A stretch of DNA of 26,528 bases, from positions 1-26,528 of IMG/VR virus record IMGVR_UViG_2563366972_000005, one strand, 5' to 3'. Below the pieces are notes generated by a model. The model searched no databases, was not told the origin of the DNA, and saw only the letters and a list, made by a program, of their open reading frames with translations. Made by a program: the position numbers and the translations under genes. The DNA is from a virus (Duplodnaviria; Heunggongvirae; Uroviricota; Caudoviricetes). Below, piece after piece: positions 4,076 through 18,008 of the stretch; position 1 is the stretch's first letter; every line of letters begins with the position of its first letter.

Positions 4076-4356
4076 TGTTTATATCCTTTTAGCAGCAGGT
4101 CCAGACGAGCCAGCATTGAAGGAATGCATACTTCATTTAACAGGTCATGCTCGAGTTTTCTCTGCTTAATGGCGTCTTCAATAAATGTTTTGTCTCCAGT
4201 GATAACGCCAATTTCGAAACGAAGTTCAGACGTACTGGCATTGCATGATAACTTTTCCATTATCGCGTCCTCAACAATGAATTTTGTGATGCGGTGCCTG
4301 GTGCCTCCAGGTGACGTTAACCAGTTAACAATTAACGCCGGATACAGAGAACCCAC
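4072..4356 (-). CDS. Kil-like small protein (possible host cell-division inhibitor); likely true start is the ATG at 4260 (62 aa)
   Basis: Motif FEIGVITGDKTFIEDAI resembles the lambda Kil core as I remember it; internal ATG at 4260 is preceded by GAGGA with 7 nt spacing; the long ORF begins with GTG. Confidence 0.4.
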   Translation of the reverse strand: MGSLYPALIVNWLTSPGGTRHRITKFIVEDAIMEKLSCNASTSELRFEIGVITGDKTFIEDAIKQRKLEHDLLNEVCIPSMLARLDLLLKGYKQ

Positions 4357-4834
4357 CCATAAGAACCAATACGGAAGTCAACTGGCCTTTTTAACTGTTC
4401 CGCGTGCGCTGAGCCGCATTCACCGCATCACAAAATTCACTTTAAAAAGGGCGGGTATCACAAGGGAAAACAAAAAACGGATACCCGCCAAAAGGTAATC
4501 AACATGGGTTGTTGCAGCGGGGTTGTCACTTAAGCGTATGGTCAACCTGACAACCTGGTGTCCTCAACGGGGAAGGAATAACCCCGCCATACTTACCGCC
4601 GCGCCATTTCGCGGATTGCCACAACCGGAAGCGCACGGTCGACGAAAATTTAACGACAGGCTATCTATGAACCAGCTACCTCGCCGTGCGCTTTCGCGTT
4701 ATGGTCTGACTTTTCATGGAAATATCCTTTCAGTAAACTGTCAGTGCCGGATGCTCACCCGTGTCCGGCGCACGCACTCCACCTCACCCGTGGAGAACTC
4801 CTTAATTACCAACCTTAGCTTCGTTGGTTAGCTA

Positions 4835-11154: not shown

Positions 11155-11346
11155 GCGAAAACGGTTTGCTGTAACGGCAGAGTTAAGTAGAATTGCTGCG
11201 GGTGCTTGAGGCTATCTGCCTCGGGCATGAACACCAACGGCAGATAGATAAAAGCCCCACCCGACTATAAATCGAAGTGAGGCCCCTATATGCTCGTCAC
11301 ATATAGATTGCCTCTTACGGACCGAAAGGTCAAGGAGAAGCAGGCT

Positions 11347-11502
11347 ATGAAGCAGCAAAAGGCGATGTTAATCGCCCTGATCGTCATCTGTTTAACCGTC
11401 ATAGTGACGGCACTGGTAACGAGGAAAGACCTCTGCGAGGTACGAATCCGAACCGGCCAGACGGAGGTCGCTGTCTTCACAGCTTACGAACCTGAGGAGT
11501 AA
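11347..11502 (+). CDS. hok: Hok/Gef-family type I toxin (small membrane-depolarising peptide)
   Basis: 51 aa MKQQKAMLIALIVICLTVIVTALVTRKDLCEVRIRTGQTEVAVFTAYEPEE; close match to the Hok signature (...LTRKSLCEIR...REVAAFMAYE...); single TM helix; highly structured upstream leader. Confidence 0.85.
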   Translation: MKQQKAMLIALIVICLTVIVTALVTRKDLCEVRIRTGQTEVAVFTAYEPEE

Positions 11503-13011: not shown

Positions 13012-13386
13012 ATGCGTATAGAGTTTGTTTTGCCTTACCCGCCGACGGTGAACACCTACTGGCGTCGTCGTGGCAGTACATATTTTGTATCAAAAGCCGG
13101 TGAGCGTTATCGCCGGGATGTGGCACTTATTGTTCGCCAGCAGCGACTGAAATTAAACCTGTCCGGAAGGCTGGCGATAAAGATTATTGCAGAGCCACCG
13201 GATAAGCGCCGTCGTGACCTGGACAATATTCTGAAAGCTCCACTGGATGCACTGACGCATGCGGGACTACTCATAGACGACGAGCAGTTTGATGAAATTA
13301 ATATTGTGCGCGGTCAGCTCGTTCCAGGTGGGCGGCTGGGCGTGAAGATTTACGAAATAATGCATGACGGGCAGGTCCAAAAATGA
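13012..13386 (+). CDS. rusA: RusA Holliday-junction resolvase (crossover junction endodeoxyribonuclease)
   Basis: 124 aa; YPPTVNTYWRRRG...RRRDLDN...LIDDEQ... parallels E. coli RusA (WPPSNNRYYR...RRRDLDN...WLDDAQ). Confidence 0.9.
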   Translation: MRIEFVLPYPPTVNTYWRRRGSTYFVSKAGERYRRDVALIVRQQRLKLNLSGRLAIKIIAEPPDKRRRDLDNILKAPLDALTHAGLLIDDEQFDEINIVRGQLVPGGRLGVKIYEIMHDGQVQK

Positions 13387-14204
13387 AACTGGAAGATTTA
13401 CCGAAATACTATTCTCCAAAATCGCCAGGCCTGACTGATGCGCCCATCTCGACGTCAAAAGATGCGCTGAGTATCACTGATGTAATGGCTGCGCAGGGTA
13501 TGACACAGAACCGGGCTGAGATGGGATTTTCCGCGTTCCTGGGAAAAATGGGCATTAGTATGAATGACAGGATGCGGGCAACAGAATTACTGGCAGATTA
13601 TGCATTAAGTCGGTGCGATCGCGTCGCGGCGTTAAGGAAACTCCCGGCAGAAATAAAACCGGCAGTGATGCGCATTATGGCTTCGTATGCTTTTGAGGAT
13701 TATGCCCGTAGTGCAGCGAGCAAAAAGCAGTGTCCTTGTTGCCGTGGGGAAAAATTTATTGAAAGCGAAGTTTTTACAAACAAGGTTCTGTATCCGGATG
13801 GTAAGCCGCCAGTATGGGCAAAGTGTACAAAAGGGGTGTATCCGTCTTACTGGGAAGAATGGAAAAAAATCCGGGAGGTGGTGAAAGTTTTCTGTCCTGA
13901 ATGTAAAGGGAAGGGGGAGATTTCGACCGCCTGTAAAGACTGCCGTGGGCGTGGTGTTGCCATTCATCGTGAAGAGTCGGAAAAACGGGGTATGCCTGTA
14001 ATCAGGAACTGCCAGCGTTGTGGCGGTCGGGGCTATGAAAGACTACCATCAACGGAGGCATTTAATGCCATACGCAAAGTGACGAGTGCTATCACGCTTG
14101 ATACGTGGAAAAAATCAGTGAAACGCTTTTACGATACGTTGGTGGTTCGGTTTGACATTGAAGAGGCATGGGCGGAGCGGCAGTTAAAGAGGGTAACGCG
14201 ATAG
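13383..14204 (+). CDS. Late-gene antiterminator Q-like protein with DnaJ-type CxxCxGxG zinc-finger repeats
   Basis: 273 aa; start overlaps rusA stop (ATGA); four CxxC motifs (CPCCRGEKF, CPECKGKGE, CKDCRGRGV, CQRCGGRGY); immediately upstream of a pR'-like promoter and tR'-like terminator. Confidence 0.65.
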   Translation: MKLEDLPKYYSPKSPGLTDAPISTSKDALSITDVMAAQGMTQNRAEMGFSAFLGKMGISMNDRMRATELLADYALSRCDRVAALRKLPAEIKPAVMRIMASYAFEDYARSAASKKQCPCCRGEKFIESEVFTNKVLYPDGKPPVWAKCTKGVYPSYWEEWKKIREVVKVFCPECKGKGEISTACKDCRGRGVAIHREESEKRGMPVIRNCQRCGGRGYERLPSTEAFNAIRKVTSAITLDTWKKSVKRFYDTLVVRFDIEEAWAERQLKRVTR

Positions 14205-14209
14205 TGTTG

Positions 14210-14237
14210 TTGATTTTTCCCGAATCTGTGGTAAATT
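14210..14237 (+). promoter_or_regulatory. pR'-like late promoter (TTGATT -16 bp- TAAATT)
   Basis: -35/-10 hexamers read from sequence just downstream of the Q-like gene; followed ~50 nt later by an intrinsic terminator, as for lambda pR'-qut-tR'. Confidence 0.45.
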
Positions 14238-14286
14238 TGCTCTAACGATGGGCGTTTTATGCCTGACGTTAGAAGAATTTTTACAG

Positions 14287-14308
14287 CCCGCCATCGAGCG
14301 GGTTTTTT
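14287..14308 (+). terminator. tR'-like intrinsic terminator (short 6S-like transcript end)
   Basis: CCCGC-CATCGA-GCGGG hairpin followed by TTTTTT. Confidence 0.65.
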
Positions 14309-14443
14309 ATATCTGGAAAGCGGTGCATAACGTTAAACGTGATGGCGATTGCGCAATGAGTTTCTCCTGCTCTGAAGTCTCTTGACTGCATGGAATCTCC
14401 TTTGTTATGTAAGGTGAGTTGATGTTTTAAAATTGTTAGAGAG

Positions 14444-15163
14444 ATGGGTATGGATGACAGCACTCTGCTGAGGAACTCTTCACTTTTTATTGCTTATATG
14501 GGCTGTCTTGGATGGGGAAGCGCTTATTTCTATGGATGGGGGACTTCCTTTTACTATGGCTTTCCATGGTGGATCGTCGGGGCTGGCGTTGATGATGTGG
14601 CTCGAAGTTTGTTTTATGCTGTGAGCGTTATCGTTATATTCCTTACTGGATGGGGAGTAGGTATTGTTTTCTTTTTAGGCATAAAACAAAAAAACAATAT
14701 ACAGAATTTGAGTTTTATCAGACTTTTTCTGGCAATATTGCTGCTTTTTATTCCGCCTGTTCTGGAGTTTTCGGTAATTCATCAGCACGTTGAGCCAGAT
14801 GTGCTGTTTTTTTGTGTTATTGCTGCCTTTACAATTACGCTTTTTGTCAGGTCAGGAAGAAGACTTATTTCAGTCAAATGTTTTTCGGAAGTGTCTTTTA
14901 TTCGCCATCACCGAATTGAGTTTATTATGGCTGGATTCATGATTTATTTCTGGACATTCTCTCTTATTGCCGGTTGGTATAAACCCCAGTTTAAGAGGGA
15001 ATATCAGACGATCCACTATGAGAATACCTGGTATTACGTTCTTGCACGCTATGATGATCGTCTGGTTTTATCGAAATCGTACAGTAATGGGAGTTCTGCA
15101 TTCGTTATACTTAATAGCGGGCAGATTGATGACTTTGAAATTAATGTAGTCAGAGTTCGTTAA
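14444..15163 (+). CDS. AT-rich integral membrane protein (about 5 predicted TM helices plus ~60 aa soluble C-terminal domain), function unknown; first gene of the late operon
   Basis: 239 aa; hydrophobic segments SLFIAYMGCLGWGSAYFYGW, LFYAVSVIVIFLTGWGVGIVFFLGI, FIRLFLAILLLFIPPVLEFSVI, VLFFCVIAAFTITLFV, FIMAGFMIYFWTFSLIAGWY; markedly lower GC than flanking phage genes. Confidence 0.65.
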   Translation: MGMDDSTLLRNSSLFIAYMGCLGWGSAYFYGWGTSFYYGFPWWIVGAGVDDVARSLFYAVSVIVIFLTGWGVGIVFFLGIKQKNNIQNLSFIRLFLAILLLFIPPVLEFSVIHQHVEPDVLFFCVIAAFTITLFVRSGRRLISVKCFSEVSFIRHHRIEFIMAGFMIYFWTFSLIAGWYKPQFKREYQTIHYENTWYYVLARYDDRLVLSKSYSNGSSAFVILNSGQIDDFEINVVRVR

Positions 15164-15285
15164 TATTGCCTGAGTAACTTTCTGTTGACCGCTCAGATTC
15201 TTTTATCATGTGTAGGCCAATATGCAGGATTTAATCAGGGTAGGGTATTGCAGAGCTAAACTGGCATAAGTATTATTCCGCATAT

Positions 15286-15361
15286 GGCCCTTTAGCTCAG
15301 TGGTGAGAGCGAGCGACTCATAATCGCCAGGTCGCTGGTTCAAATCCAGCAAGGGCCACCA
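15286..15361 (+). tRNA. tRNA-Ile2 (anticodon CAU, lysidine-type, reads AUA), ileX-like
   Basis: Cloverleaf folded by hand: acceptor GGCCCTT/AAGGGCC, anticodon loop CTCATAA, T-loop TTCAAAT, encoded CCA; near-identical to E. coli tRNA-Ile2. Confidence 0.88.
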
Positions 15362-15362
15362 A

Positions 15363-15439
15363 CCGCCACTAGCTCATCAGGAAAGAGCGTCAACCCTTTA
15401 AGTTGAGAGTGCGAGGTTCGAGTCCCCGGTGGCGGTCCA
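15363..15439 (+). tRNA. Noncanonical tRNA-like gene (anticodon loop CCTTTAA: UUU at 34-36 but C at position 33; A.C mismatch in T-stem)
   Basis: Acceptor CCGCCAC/GTGGCGG, U8, D-arm GCTC/GAGC, T-loop TTCGAGT, encoded CCA; anticodon stem TCAAC/GTTGA. Confidence 0.55.
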
Positions 15440-15441
15440 GT

Positions 15442-15517
<76 letters not shown>

Positions 15518-15520
15518 TAT

Positions 15521-15595
<75 letters not shown>

Positions 15596-16147
15596 GCATT
15601 TGAAACAAGCCTTATTGTATCGTGGCACTGGCGTATTTTTTATTACGTGGAGGTTGTTTTAAAAAGACATTCTGTTCTCTGGCTATGATTGGAGGTCGGT
15701 TGTAGTCACAGTGCTGATTTTTTACAGCAGCAGAATGGTGCATTATCGGTGGAGATTTTGTATTTCCTGGCAGGGTCGGTGATGCATCATTCTGGTGTTG
15801 TAAACACGTTGCAGAGGCGTTCCTCAGGGCGAAGGTAATTAAGAGTTGGTTTAGTGGGAAATCACAGTATCCATACAGGACGGAATACTTCGGGAGGTGC
15901 TCGACGCCCAGGTTTTATAACAATCAAAAAATTCATCTCTTGCATTGACCAACCTTCTTCATGGCGGTTTTTTTTGGTAATTGATTGAATTGCATACTGA
16001 ATAATCATTGCATCGTTAAAATTATAACTAATTCCGAATATGCTGTGCTTGCTTATTGTTAGTTTGCTTACATTTCTGTATCTTGCTGCACCGCAGGATT
16101 CCCCTGTAACGACGATTGTATGATGAATCATTTAAACTTTGTAATTT

Positions 16148-16179
16148 GCCAGCCAGTCTCTGGTGGCTGGTTTTTTTTT
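16148..16179 (+). terminator. Rho-independent terminator (CCAGCCA...TGGCTGG hairpin plus T9)
   Basis: Read from sequence; terminates rightward transcription of the unexplained region after the tRNA cluster. Confidence 0.6.
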
Positions 16180-16232
16180 GCAAGGTGTTCCAGTAATTCT
16201 GTCGTCAGGCTGGATTCCCACAGAACAAAAAA

Positions 16233-16314
16233 CCGTCACTAACTCATCGGGTAAGAGTGCATAACGCGTATTGTTGTTTTGTGGTGCGGGGTTCGAGTCC
16301 CCGGTGACGGTCCA
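16233..16314 (+). tRNA. tRNA-like gene / probable pseudo-tRNA, paralogous to the gene at 15363, with expanded noncanonical anticodon region
   Basis: Intact acceptor (CCGTCAC/GTGACGG), D-arm (ACTC/GAGT), T-arm (CGGGG-TTCGAGT-CCCCG) and CCA, but 28 nt between D- and T-stems instead of 23; best anticodon stem ATAAC/GTTGT gives loop GCGTATT. Confidence 0.45.
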
Positions 16315-16342
16315 TTTGTAACGGTAAATATACTTTTAACAG

Positions 16343-16363
16343 GCTCGCTTCGGCGAGCTTTTT
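16343..16363 (+). terminator. Rho-independent terminator after the tRNA-like gene
   Basis: GCTCGC-TTCG-GCGAGC hairpin followed by TTTTT. Confidence 0.6.
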
Positions 16364-16683
16364 GTATGAGTTCAACCCGGTTTATATTGGAGAAAAAAGG
16401 GCGCGGCTGTCGGATTAAAGCCGCGGGACAAAGTCCATGAAGAAGAATAAGTATTGGCCCCCTTCTGGGGACATGTTCATATTACTAAGCATTAAAAATG
16501 GTTTAAATCCTCAGATTAACTTTAATTTCAGATAAGCTTTATTTCATTTCTTCGCGCCACGCCCGGCGCATATCAAAAACCACAGAGCCTTTCAGGGGTG
16601 AGCTTACGGGATGGTCAGTGTGACTTTCTCTGTGGGCTGGTCACCCCCGTGCGGAGGCTCATCCACCAAAAGGAAAAGTCACG

Positions 16684-17109
16684 ATGTTTGGTATTTTCAA
16701 AAAGAAAACCCGCAAGGCCATTACTGAAGTGAAGAAAATGGAGAATCGCGATGCGGTGGAGGCAACCGTCTGGGGTGCGTATTCCATTGCATACGCTGAC
16801 GGCACCTGTGACGCGAAAGAAATCGCGGTACTGGAGAAAACCATTGCAGCACTTCCTTCTTTTGCGCCGTTCTCCGGTGAGATTGCCCAGATGAGTGCCA
16901 ATATCCGCGCCCGTTATGAAGCGTCACCGCGTTCTGCCAATGCCGAAGCTCTTCGTCAGCTGGCTGATGTCGCCGGTACTGATGACGCGGTGAATGTGCT
17001 GTGCCTGTGTCTGGATATCGCTGACCAGGACGGCATTGGTCCGGATGAAGAAGCACAGCTCAAGAAAATTGCACAGGCGTTGCAGTTGCCGCTGGAGCAG
17101 TACCTGTGA
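16684..17109 (+). CDS. TerB-like protein (tellurite-resistance TerB family fold)
   Basis: 141 aa; pattern resembles E. coli TerB throughout (N-terminal AVEATVWGAYSIAYADG..., C-terminal DGIGPDEEAQLKKIAQALQLP versus TerB DGNFDDDEKSAVREIARSLGFDP); AAGGAAAAG RBS. Confidence 0.7.
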   Translation: MFGIFKKKTRKAITEVKKMENRDAVEATVWGAYSIAYADGTCDAKEIAVLEKTIAALPSFAPFSGEIAQMSANIRARYEASPRSANAEALRQLADVAGTDDAVNVLCLCLDIADQDGIGPDEEAQLKKIAQALQLPLEQYL

Positions 17110-17258
17110 AAAGTGCGCGCCTTGTGCTGGCTGCCATCCTGCTGTTTCTGGTAGTGGCGGTGGATTTCACCGGACGGCTGATGTCGGTGCTGGCAGATGG
17201 TGTGCTGGTGGCGATGGCGCTGGTTGTGCTCCGACCTTTACTGCGCAAATCTGAATAA
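17106..17258 (+). CDS. Small membrane peptide (50 aa, VKSARLVLAAILLFLVVAVDFTGRLMSVLADGVLVAMALVVLRPLLRKSE); not in the ORF track
   Basis: Hand-translated; GTG start overlaps the TerB-like stop (GTGA); two hydrophobic segments; followed by tandem hairpin terminators. Confidence 0.3.
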   Translation: MKSARLVLAAILLFLVVAVDFTGRLMSVLADGVLVAMALVVLRPLLRKSE

Positions 17259-17310
17259 CACCACACAAAAGGCATCTGCGGGTGCCTTTGACGGGGTGTT
17301 GTTTTTTTAC

Positions 17311-17334
17311 GGGCCGCTGGTGGCCCTTTTTTCT
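17311..17334 (+). terminator. Rho-independent terminator (GGGCC-GCTGGT-GGCCC plus TTTTTTCTTT), preceded by a second hairpin at 17271-17290
   Basis: Read from sequence; separates the TerB-like pair from the lysis cassette. Confidence 0.6.
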
Positions 17335-17350
17335 TTACAGGAGAAAATGT

Positions 17351-17743
17351 ATGTCTGAACCCTTATCCGGTTCTGGTACAGCCGCTGCGCTCGGCGGGGC
17401 GACGGTATTCGGACTGTTTACCGGGACGGATTTCGGGATTGTGTTTGGGGCGTTCGCCGGAGCGTTGTTTGTGGCAACGATGCCGCAGGCGCTTTCAGCC
17501 TGGCGGGTGGCGGCACATTTTCTGGTGTCGTTCATTGTCGGCGTGCTGGGAGCGCGCGTGCTGTCAGCCTGGATTGCAGCAAAAACAGGTTATGACGGTA
17601 CATCGGCGGATGCACTGTGTGCGGTGCTGGTATCGGTGGTGTCGGTAAAGATTCTGTCGTTTATCCACCAACAGGATATCGCATCACTGGTGTCCGGCCT
17701 GTTCTCCCGCTTGCGTGGCGGAGGAGGCGGCAATGTTAAGTAA
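17351..17743 (+). CDS. Holin-like membrane protein
   Basis: 130 aa from ATG 17351 (AGGAG 7 nt upstream); Gly/Ala-rich TM helices (GATVFGLFTGTDFGIVFGAFAGALFVA...); first gene of the lysis cassette. Confidence 0.65.
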   Translation: MSEPLSGSGTAAALGGATVFGLFTGTDFGIVFGAFAGALFVATMPQALSAWRVAAHFLVSFIVGVLGARVLSAWIAAKTGYDGTSADALCAVLVSVVSVKILSFIHQQDIASLVSGLFSRLRGGGGGNVK

Positions 17744-18008
17744 CCTTCCCGGATTGCTGAATGTGGCGTTATGCACGGTTATCGTGCTGACGCTCTTTTT
17801 TTATCGCCGTCGTGATTCCAGACATAAACCGCTGATGTCATGGCTGGCCTGGCTGTTGATGTTGCTTTATGCCTTAACGCCTCTCAGCTATCTGTGTGGT
17901 CGCCCGTTAGCAACGGGCTGGCTGGAAGTGTTTTTTAATCTGTTGTTCTGCGTGCTGGTAATACGTGCTCGCGGGAACGTTTCAAAAATCCTTTCATCCC
18001 GGAGGTGA
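17733..18008 (+). CDS. Second lysis-cassette membrane protein (holin/antiholin-like)
   Basis: 91 aa from ATG 17733 (GGAGG upstream); 2-3 hydrophobic helices; lies between holin and endolysin. Confidence 0.55.
   Translation: MLSNLPGLLNVALCTVIVLTLFFYRRRDSRHKPLMSWLAWLLMLLYALTPLSYLCGRPLATGWLEVFFNLLFCVLVIRARGNVSKILSSRR

Follow-up and report, generated by a model that had tools for sequence, protein, structure and literature searches.

The stretch at positions 15596–16232 of a 26,528-nucleotide (nt) viral DNA (IMG/VR record IMGVR_UViG_2563366972_000005; "the window" denotes all 26,528 nt) lies between a cluster of transfer RNA (tRNA) genes and a tRNA-like gene in a lambdoid prophage of Escherichia type. 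A sequence-only reading had seen no convincing gene here, and this holds: ARAGORN and Rfam tRNA matches place the end of tRNA-Gly(TCC) at 15595 and the start of the tRNA-like gene at 16233, and the open reading frames (ORFs) between them are neither conserved nor matched by Pfam. The main feature, which that reading missed, is a conserved structured RNA of ~380 nt (15596–15977) with its own, weakened terminator (15951–15977). BLAST searches of 5,426 complete E. coli genomes and 50,697 phage records divide the stretch into two units, module A (15596 to ~15977) and module B (16023–16181). We consider it fairly probable that the interval is a non-coding RNA cassette of the lambdoid prophage late region, working by the mechanism proposed below, and neither a gene desert nor a scar. 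The features of the stretch are as follows.

15596–15720, + strand: leader of module A, a trailer that begins immediately 3′ of the tRNA-Gly CCA and contains helices H1–H3 and then a U-run
15721–15804, + strand: long G·U-rich hairpin, 34 bp in total (H4 and the apical H5), identified by covariation and folding
15811–15916, + strand: STnc100-like five-helix domain, with closing helix P1, hairpins P2–P4, and P5
15917–15950, + strand: A/U-rich single-stranded linker, unpaired in the consensus and variable in sequence
15951–15977, + strand: intrinsic terminator of module A, eroded in the window; in relatives the stem is conserved and the loop variable
16023–16181, + strand: module B, a discrete small RNA (sRNA)-like unit of ~158 nt with fixed boundaries and a terminator at 16148–16179
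16040–16123, + strand: hydrophobic 27-codon ORF inside module B

Module A is present in 305 of the 5,426 complete E. coli genomes, in ~100 IMG/VR loci and in the phages vB_EcoS-683R6 and SerU-LTIIb. It begins directly 3′ of the CCA end of a phage tRNA-Gly(UCC), with a GCUCCA or GUUCCA end, in 25 of 26 non-redundant representatives, and the Thr–Gly pair is the part of the tRNA set that always accompanies it. In a single scan for a degenerate 24-nt core pattern, which divergent homologs may escape, E. ruysiae was the only match outside E. coli among 185,579 species representatives. More divergent relatives (L146–L161) were retrieved by a second, independent scan using a 20-mer from the five-helix domain. 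In most phages module A continues into a block that is found in the window at 16389–16577, so module B and the tRNA-like gene are an insertion relative to the common layout. The block is itself conserved and non-coding, with ~85% identity to phages 683R6 and SerU-LTIIb and, by eye, a similar sequence in E. ruysiae; in all three it directly follows module A, upstream of holin or TerB genes. Comparison of the stretch against the window itself revealed no internal repeats, and no paper was retrieved when the literature was searched in full text for six core sequences from the modules. The gene for the anti-adaptor IraM recurs on the opposite strand beside these modules (L002 3270–3596, L005 2603–2758, L010 2385–2720 and L145 3028–3363); iraM is not in the window.

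Module A forms a structured RNA from the + strand and does not code for protein. RNAalifold applied to the 26 representatives gave 79 base pairs, to which five terminator pairs were added by hand, making 84 pairs counted. Over these 84 pairs 97.8% of cells are paired, compared to 38–53% when the partners are slid, and both sides have changed in 13 pairs, compared to 6.2 ± 1.4 in shuffled alignments, none of 500 of which reaches the observed value. The + strand folds with –119 kcal/mol (z-score –3.5) and the – strand with –73.6 kcal/mol (z –0.9), and the pairs are complementary in 97.8% of cells on the + strand versus 83.8% on the – strand, G·U pairs making up 14.6% of paired cells. The leader helices span 15623–15716, with H1 formed by 15623–15630 and 15709–15716, H2 by 15631–15635 and 15644–15648, and a third helix, H3; compensatory changes occur in H1 and H2. 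In the long hairpin the apical part and internal loop are invariant (GGUGGAGAUUUUGUAUUUCCUGGCAGGG, 15748–15775), and the 91-nt stretch that contains it (15718–15808) folds with –43.4 kcal/mol (z = –8.7). Of the 28 pairs in H4, 16 change on one side only and three on both sides, and 98.8% of cells are paired. The divergent subtypes L146, L147 and L148 have a long hairpin of other sequence at the same place upstream of the domain, preceded by a U-run and with z between –6 and –8, which implies that the composite of hairpin and domain is itself conserved.

The coding readings of module A fail. The longest ORFs in the stretch encode 49 residues on the + strand (15689–15838) and 89 residues on the – strand (15862–16131), and neither these nor the 27-codon ORF of module B match Pfam. 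Among 81 unique copies, substitutions per codon phase are 0.088, 0.094 and 0.101, i.e. without three-base periodicity, and ORFs on both strands differ in length, ends and frame among relatives; we therefore reject module A as a protein gene. The 89-residue – strand ORF, for example, varies from 44 to 89 residues and has differing C-termini. The frame annotated by PGAP in module A has no conserved start, is changed by 1–2 nt indels and crosses the terminator in different genomes. The PGAP "hypothetical proteins" of strains TW11681 and ETEC1749 were likewise rejected as genes, as they have in common only a start that is conserved at the nucleotide level, followed by differing sequence and terminators. 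Such "hypothetical proteins" are annotated on either strand over modules A and B (L137 3119–3379, L138 2618–3016, L006 3171–3425 and L003 4190–4507). Because their ends are variable and terminators are read through, they are probably spurious calls on RNA genes. Two non-coding alternatives were also discarded. A sigma-54 or sigma-70 promoter in the invariant core of module A does not fit, since the GG-to-GC spacing is 15 instead of 12 and no –10 element was visible by eye. A riboswitch or antiterminator does not fit either, since no conserved alternative partner for the terminator was evident and the genes downstream are variable.

The family to which module A belongs is revealed by its five-helix domain, where P5 corresponds to the near-invariant CGGGAGGCACCCG hairpin of the family, with the form CGGGAGGUGCUCG in the window. 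From an alignment of 20 diverse domain copies, which excluded the window, STnc100 and PasD, we built a covariance model, R1. Its consensus contains five helices and 29 pairs, 14 of which have compensatory changes on both sides; 97.5% of cells are paired, compared to 41–50% when slid, and none of 500 shuffles matches the observed covariation. On window positions 15811–15916 R1 scores 73.2 bits with all 110 of its positions aligned (E-value 4.6e-19; calibration of R1 was shortened, so its E-values are rough). R1 also detects canonical STnc100, with 26.3 bits (E 1.3e-6) in phage 933W and 20.4 bits (E about 5e-4) in strain M8. In the opposite direction, the Rfam STnc100 model (RF02076) scores 22, 27.6, 28.4 and 36 bits on relatives of module A, the divergent L146–L161 lying at 28–36 bits and the closer ones at 22–28. 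It aligns to the divergent relatives at full length, covering model positions 1–206 in L147 and pairing the same helices. For comparison, it gives 41 bits for PasD2 of E2348/69, 107 bits for the canonical copy of M8 and 207.7 bits for that of 933W; the Rfam gathering threshold is 47 bits, and module A remains outside the formal Rfam family. R1 and the Rfam model thus detect each other's members, so homology with the STnc100 superfamily is supported in both directions. The layout agrees as well: module A has the closing helix, the internal hairpins and the GGGAGGCACCC hairpin adjoining the 3′ strand of the closing helix, and it lies on the sense strand between Q and the lysis genes and ends in an intrinsic terminator, which is weak in the window. 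The profile matches and shared architecture support assignment of module A as a sub-threshold, tRNA-linked member of the STnc100/PasD superfamily. An Rfam scan, suggested by the sequence-only reading as a check, returned for the stretch itself only spurious sub-threshold matches to microRNA precursors, Qrr and VqmR; in the relatives of module A, Rfam did yield the sub-threshold STnc100 matches.

Further copies of this kind of domain were observed. A second STnc100-like element lies on the – strand in the early-left region of the window (4283–4437), with 33.7 bits to Rfam STnc100 (E 1e-5, sub-threshold) and 24.4 bits to R1; its closing helix is GCGGUG...CACCGC, and the hallmark CCUGGAGGCACCAGG hairpin is present. 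In E. coli 95-3322 and A39, module B is followed by an array of three to four five-helix domains in tandem (L143 2840–3870 and L144 2840–3609; R1 26–32 bits), which precede an esterase or DUF6645 gene.

The known members of the superfamily are expressed. In strain EDL933, 11 STnc100 copies are transcribed, and a Northern blot confirmed one of them (PMC5331693). RIL-seq detected PasD1 and PasD2 on Hfq, and Northern blots verified both (PMC8550237). A common origin of PasD and STnc100 was proposed by Zhu, Shabalina and Storz (bioRxiv 10.64898/2026.05.13.724894). STnc100 (RF02076) is found in Salmonella, enterohemorrhagic E. coli (EHEC) and phages carrying Shiga toxin 2 (Stx2). Module A resembles it in the closing helix, the internal hairpins, an CCGGGAGGCACCCGG-type hairpin by the 3′ strand of the closing helix, the linker and intrinsic terminator after the domain, the sense orientation in the Q-to-lysis interval and the reciprocal profile matches. 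However, its helix sequences differ, the Rfam model misses the window copy, and module A has no promoter of its own, being fused instead to a tRNA-Gly trailer with the long hairpin that canonical STnc100 lacks. PasD1 and PasD2 of the enteropathogenic E. coli strain E2348/69 (Pearl Mizrahi 2021; Zhu et al. 2026) are further sub-threshold relatives of STnc100 and lie in a prophage late region by DUF3927 and holin genes. Unlike module A they have promoter-like TTGACT/TATTAA upstream and, in our reading, have lost the P5 hairpin, and they have no detectable sequence similarity to the window. We did not find the tRNA-Gly-fused, long-hairpin subfamily in the STnc100 and PasD papers or by literature sequence search.

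Other sRNAs of this neighborhood are more distant. PasA, PasC, AgvB and AsxR share the surroundings (RusA, TerB, holin) and are terminator-ended small RNAs; PasA, PasC and AsxR differ in being antisense to the late operon. Identity with PasA, PasB, PasC or PasD2 was rejected, since the E2348/69 genes at their published coordinates give only chance matches of 9–13 nt to the window. The AgvB and AsxR models (RF02702 and RF02703) have no match in 14000–18000 at E ≤ 1; in 933W, the positive control, both are detected, AsxR with 88 bits. A different precedent is 3′ETS-leuZ of the glyW-cysT-leuZ operon, a sponge for RyhB and RybB that is ~50 nt long and little structured. Module A similarly starts right at the 3′ end of the last tRNA, after its CCA, and ends at an intrinsic terminator of the operon, as expected for a tRNA-operon 3′ trailer. 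It differs in being ~380 nt long and highly structured, and its co-transcription with the tRNAs is predicted.

Module B is found in 46 of the 5,426 genomes, with boundaries always at 16023/16024 and 16180–16183 in differing contexts; it occupies the Q-to-lysis interval, in the direction of the late operon and near tRNAs. An alignment of eleven variants, which represent six lineages, begins at a conserved TATAAC and extends as far as the terminator. The unit folds with –46.7 kcal/mol (z –2.0), and its conservation is mostly one of sequence. Its terminator, with which the sequence-only reading had the stretch end, is indeed real and strong, though the stretch continues for 53 nt beyond it: at 16148–16179 an 8-bp stem with five G-C pairs and a U9 tail folds with –16 kcal/mol (z = –3.45; none of 200 shuffles is as stable), and it is kept in every relative, with one compensatory change from C-G to U-A. 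In every case another terminator is present ~50 nt upstream, which leaves module B between two terminators. The rrA, rrB and rrF sRNAs between the dual terminators of rrn operons (PMC8144298) may offer an analogy of placement, although there is no sequence relation and module B is in a phage tRNA operon, not an rRNA operon. At its start, the TATAAC at 16023–16028 is without the final T of a –10 element and without a properly spaced –35 element, and a consensus scan finds no promoter. A discrete conserved unit with conserved sequence upstream of a terminal stem-loop and U-tail fits an Hfq-type sRNA, and module B is thus an sRNA candidate. The suggestion of an sRNA in this stretch has therefore fared well, with two RNA units in place of one.

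How these RNAs might be made and act follows from their setting. The features outside the stretch are as follows.

13383–14204: Q antiterminator (PF03589), upstream of the stretch
14285–14304: tR′-like terminator, 3′ of Q
14444–15163: membrane ORF, between the tR′-like terminator and the tRNA cluster
15248–15276, + strand: pT-type sigma-70 promoter of the phage tRNA operon (–35 TTGCAG, 15248–15253; 17-nt spacer; –10 TATTAT, 15271–15276)
15286–15595, + strand: tRNA cluster called by ARAGORN, with anticodons CAU (Met/Ile2), Lys(UUU), Thr(UGU) and Gly(UCC); Rfam tRNA matches of 45–74 bits
16233–16314, + strand: tRNA-derived RNA at the right border, called by ARAGORN and by alignment with tRNA-Lys; usually accompanies module B

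Downstream of the stretch, beyond the tRNA-like gene and a further terminator, Pfam identifies TerB, DUF3927, two holins and an M15 endolysin. The pT-type promoter is separated by 9 nt from the first tRNA, which starts at 15286; its hexamers, their spacing and the distance to the first tRNA are common to L006, L137, L008 and L142, where the spacer sequences differ. The architecture is identical to that of pT in 933W. A consensus promoter scan missed it, the –35 hexamer fitting only three of six consensus positions. This promoter, itself outside the stretch, is the likely source of the module A transcript, and we infer from one feature, the conserved pT motif, that module A is co-transcribed with the tRNAs.

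We propose that transcription would start from pT in the lysogen and, after induction, also from pR′ by Q-modified polymerase, and would proceed through the four tRNAs into the trailer. Module A would then fold, as covariation supports, into the leader helices, the 34-bp hairpin, the domain homologous to STnc100 and PasD, an A/U-rich stretch and the intrinsic terminator. Processing of the tRNA 3′ end together with cleavage at or near the long hairpin, by RNase III or RNase E, would yield an STnc100-like RNA ~170 nt in length. By analogy with Hfq-bound PasD this RNA could act in trans, or bind a partner, through the near-invariant GGGAGGCACCC hairpin. In the window, the module B RNA is probably made by read-through from module A because the module A terminator is weak; polymerase would pass the eroded closing helix and terminator and stop at 16148–16179. 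The stacked terminators would prevent holin and endolysin expression in the lysogen until overridden by Q-modified polymerase.

Several points weigh against this interpretation. The window copy of module A has lost 4 of the 84 pairs, including one in the terminator stem, and has extra broken pairs in the five-helix domain. The 5′ arm of the terminator has changed from AACCGCC to AACCUUC, and the terminator folds with –4.5 kcal/mol (z 0.07), compared to –12.4 kcal/mol (z –3.95) in E. ruysiae; a strict pattern search finds the module A terminator in 63 of 68 full-length copies. The window copy may thus be decaying. All module A homologs come from Escherichia prophages, and some of the covarying cells represent few independent events. 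The Rfam STnc100 model does not match window positions 15700–16000 even at E ≤ 10, the relatives are below its threshold, R1 gives only 10 bits (E 0.46) on PasD2, and its E-values are rough, as mentioned above. No promoter of its own was convincingly found for the STnc100-like domain or for module B. Published expression is confined to canonical STnc100 (PMC5331693) and PasD (PMC8550237), and the function of STnc100 has not been established (PMC12370729).

An alternative that we regard as unlikely is that these RNA elements act in cis alone, the terminator stack and processing hairpins shielding the lysis genes from the constitutive tRNA promoter and separating tRNA maturation from the late mRNA, with no trans-acting RNA. 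Three to four intrinsic terminators (including 15951–15977, 16148–16179 and 16341–16360) separate the tRNAs from the holin, the unrelated tRNA trailer of the IHE3034 prophage also terminates before the holin, and 933W has a terminator right after its tRNAs; that no function is known for STnc100 agrees with this. A terminator, however, needs ~30 nt, whereas ~300 nt of additional structure, near-invariant loops included, is kept by compensatory change. The five-helix domain also occurs without an upstream tRNA (933W, M8) and in tandem arrays (L143, L144), and STnc100 and PasD accumulate as discrete RNAs (PMC5331693, PMC8550237).

A bolder and quite improbable reading takes the tRNA-linked composite of U-run, long G·U hairpin and five-helix domain as a functional unit of the phage tRNA operon and not an ordinary base-pairing sRNA. 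In that case the near-invariant GGGAGGCACCC hairpin and the invariant top of the long hairpin could bind a specific protein, and the composite might serve as a decoy or inhibitor within a counter-defense role of the adjacent tRNAs, or in lysis timing. If true, proteins rather than mRNAs would be the targets of the entire STnc100 superfamily, which has ~11 copies per EHEC genome.

The 27-codon ORF at 16040–16123 exists with exactly the translation given in the sequence-only reading (MLCLLIVSLLTFLYLAAPQDSPVTTIV), and could in principle be what module B encodes, as a small membrane toxin or regulator, for example of the type I toxin kind. This we judge very unlikely. The ORF has an ATG at the same place in L140/ECOR29, where the first 22 residues are shared with five synonymous and four non-synonymous differences, and by our reading of the alignments strain A10 retains the frame and the same stop codon. 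Conservation across related prophages extends to the window and L140/ECOR29 lineages and fails elsewhere: the ORF is intact in those two lineages only, A10 has ATA in place of the start codon, +1/–1 indels shift the frame in M19, a stop follows 12 codons in E9, and O170 is shifted after residue 14. Despite these breaks nucleotide conservation remains high across the ORF. No purine-rich Shine-Dalgarno sequence is present in 16020–16039, and neither a terminator-like site on the – strand nor an antisense RNA was seen in 14000–18000. An intact conserved ORF with start codon and ribosome-binding site, as expected for a type I toxin or small peptide, was thus not found; the ORF is probably not translated, and its breakage in relatives makes module B look like an sRNA rather than a peptide gene.

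The sequence-only reading had also recognized the position as the one where Shiga toxin (Stx) phages carry stxAB, and noted that no toxin-like ORF is present. Both are correct. The 933W record lists pR′, terminators, a "pT; putative tRNA promoter", three tRNAs, a terminator and stx2AB; STnc100 lies 75 nt 3′ of stx2B, as also described in PMC12370729, the lysis genes come after it, and Rfam places AsxR on the opposite strand. The toxin slot is therefore the interval between the tRNAs and the STnc100-type RNA. In the window this interval holds 215 nt of conserved structured leader and no toxin: pT and the tRNAs lead to the STnc100-like RNA directly. That the stretch is the scar of a lost cargo gene such as stx is the least probable reading of all: its slot is identical to that of stx2AB in 933W, the prophage mosaic has a junction precisely where tRNA-Gly ends, and the window helices and terminator are eroded, but module A is full-length, bounded and intact in hundreds of genomes and module B in dozens, the 215 nt that separate the domain from tRNA-Gly are conserved structured RNA and not debris, no truncated ORF resembles any Pfam family, and the stretch is matched by only two of 50,697 phage records, both through module A and neither an Stx phage. 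With RNA covariation in many prophages and no similarity to Stx phages or toxin flanks, the conserved structure across relatives also distinguishes the stretch from an intergenic remnant.

Returning to the RNA cassette, what it adds is that a known but unexplained RNA family is extended and structured, rather than a new kind of element being described. The STnc100 family is wider than the Rfam threshold captures and gains a five-helix structure supported by covariation. New are the subfamily joined to a phage tRNA-Gly gene via a conserved long hairpin, and module B as a candidate sRNA. Few non-coding elements in the prophages of pathogenic E. coli are repeated as often as STnc100-type RNAs, one copy of which lies right behind stx2. 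For the window itself the result is modest, with a slightly eroded copy and no toxin.

The left border of the finding coincides with a breakpoint of the prophage mosaic. Positions 14200–15596 are 99.5% identical to prophages of sequence type 95 (ST95) strains such as IHE3034, and this similarity ends exactly at the 3′ end of tRNA-Gly, so the finding starts at a mosaic junction, 15596. Where the window has module A, the ST95 prophages have a trailer of ~290 nt that is unrelated to it and includes a terminator of its own. The combination of this left flank with module A is absent from the complete E. coli genome collection, and 14200–16700 is never covered to at least 80% by one record.

At the right border, the RNA at 16233–16314 is a paralog of tRNA-Lys(UUU) of the cluster (15363–15439). 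It has retained the acceptor stem, D-arm and T-arm, with a compensatory change from C-G to U-A in the acceptor stem, and has a longer GU-rich sequence in place of the anticodon arm. ARAGORN calls the homolog from strain A10 as a tRNA whose UUA anticodon would read a stop codon. The first tRNA of the cluster, with anticodon CAU, is labeled tRNA-Ile by PGAP in relatives. All four anticodon classes of the cluster, Thr(UGU), Gly(UCC), CAU and Lys(UUU), have been reported as targets of tRNA-cleaving defense nucleases, Lys(UUU) being the target of PARIS and PrrC, and the cluster at 15286–15595 may be a counter-defense cassette. Elsewhere in the window, positions 11200–11349 of the nin region match Rfam sok, a hok/sok-type antitoxin RNA, with 103.9 bits; the IHE3034 prophage has hokD annotated at the corresponding place.

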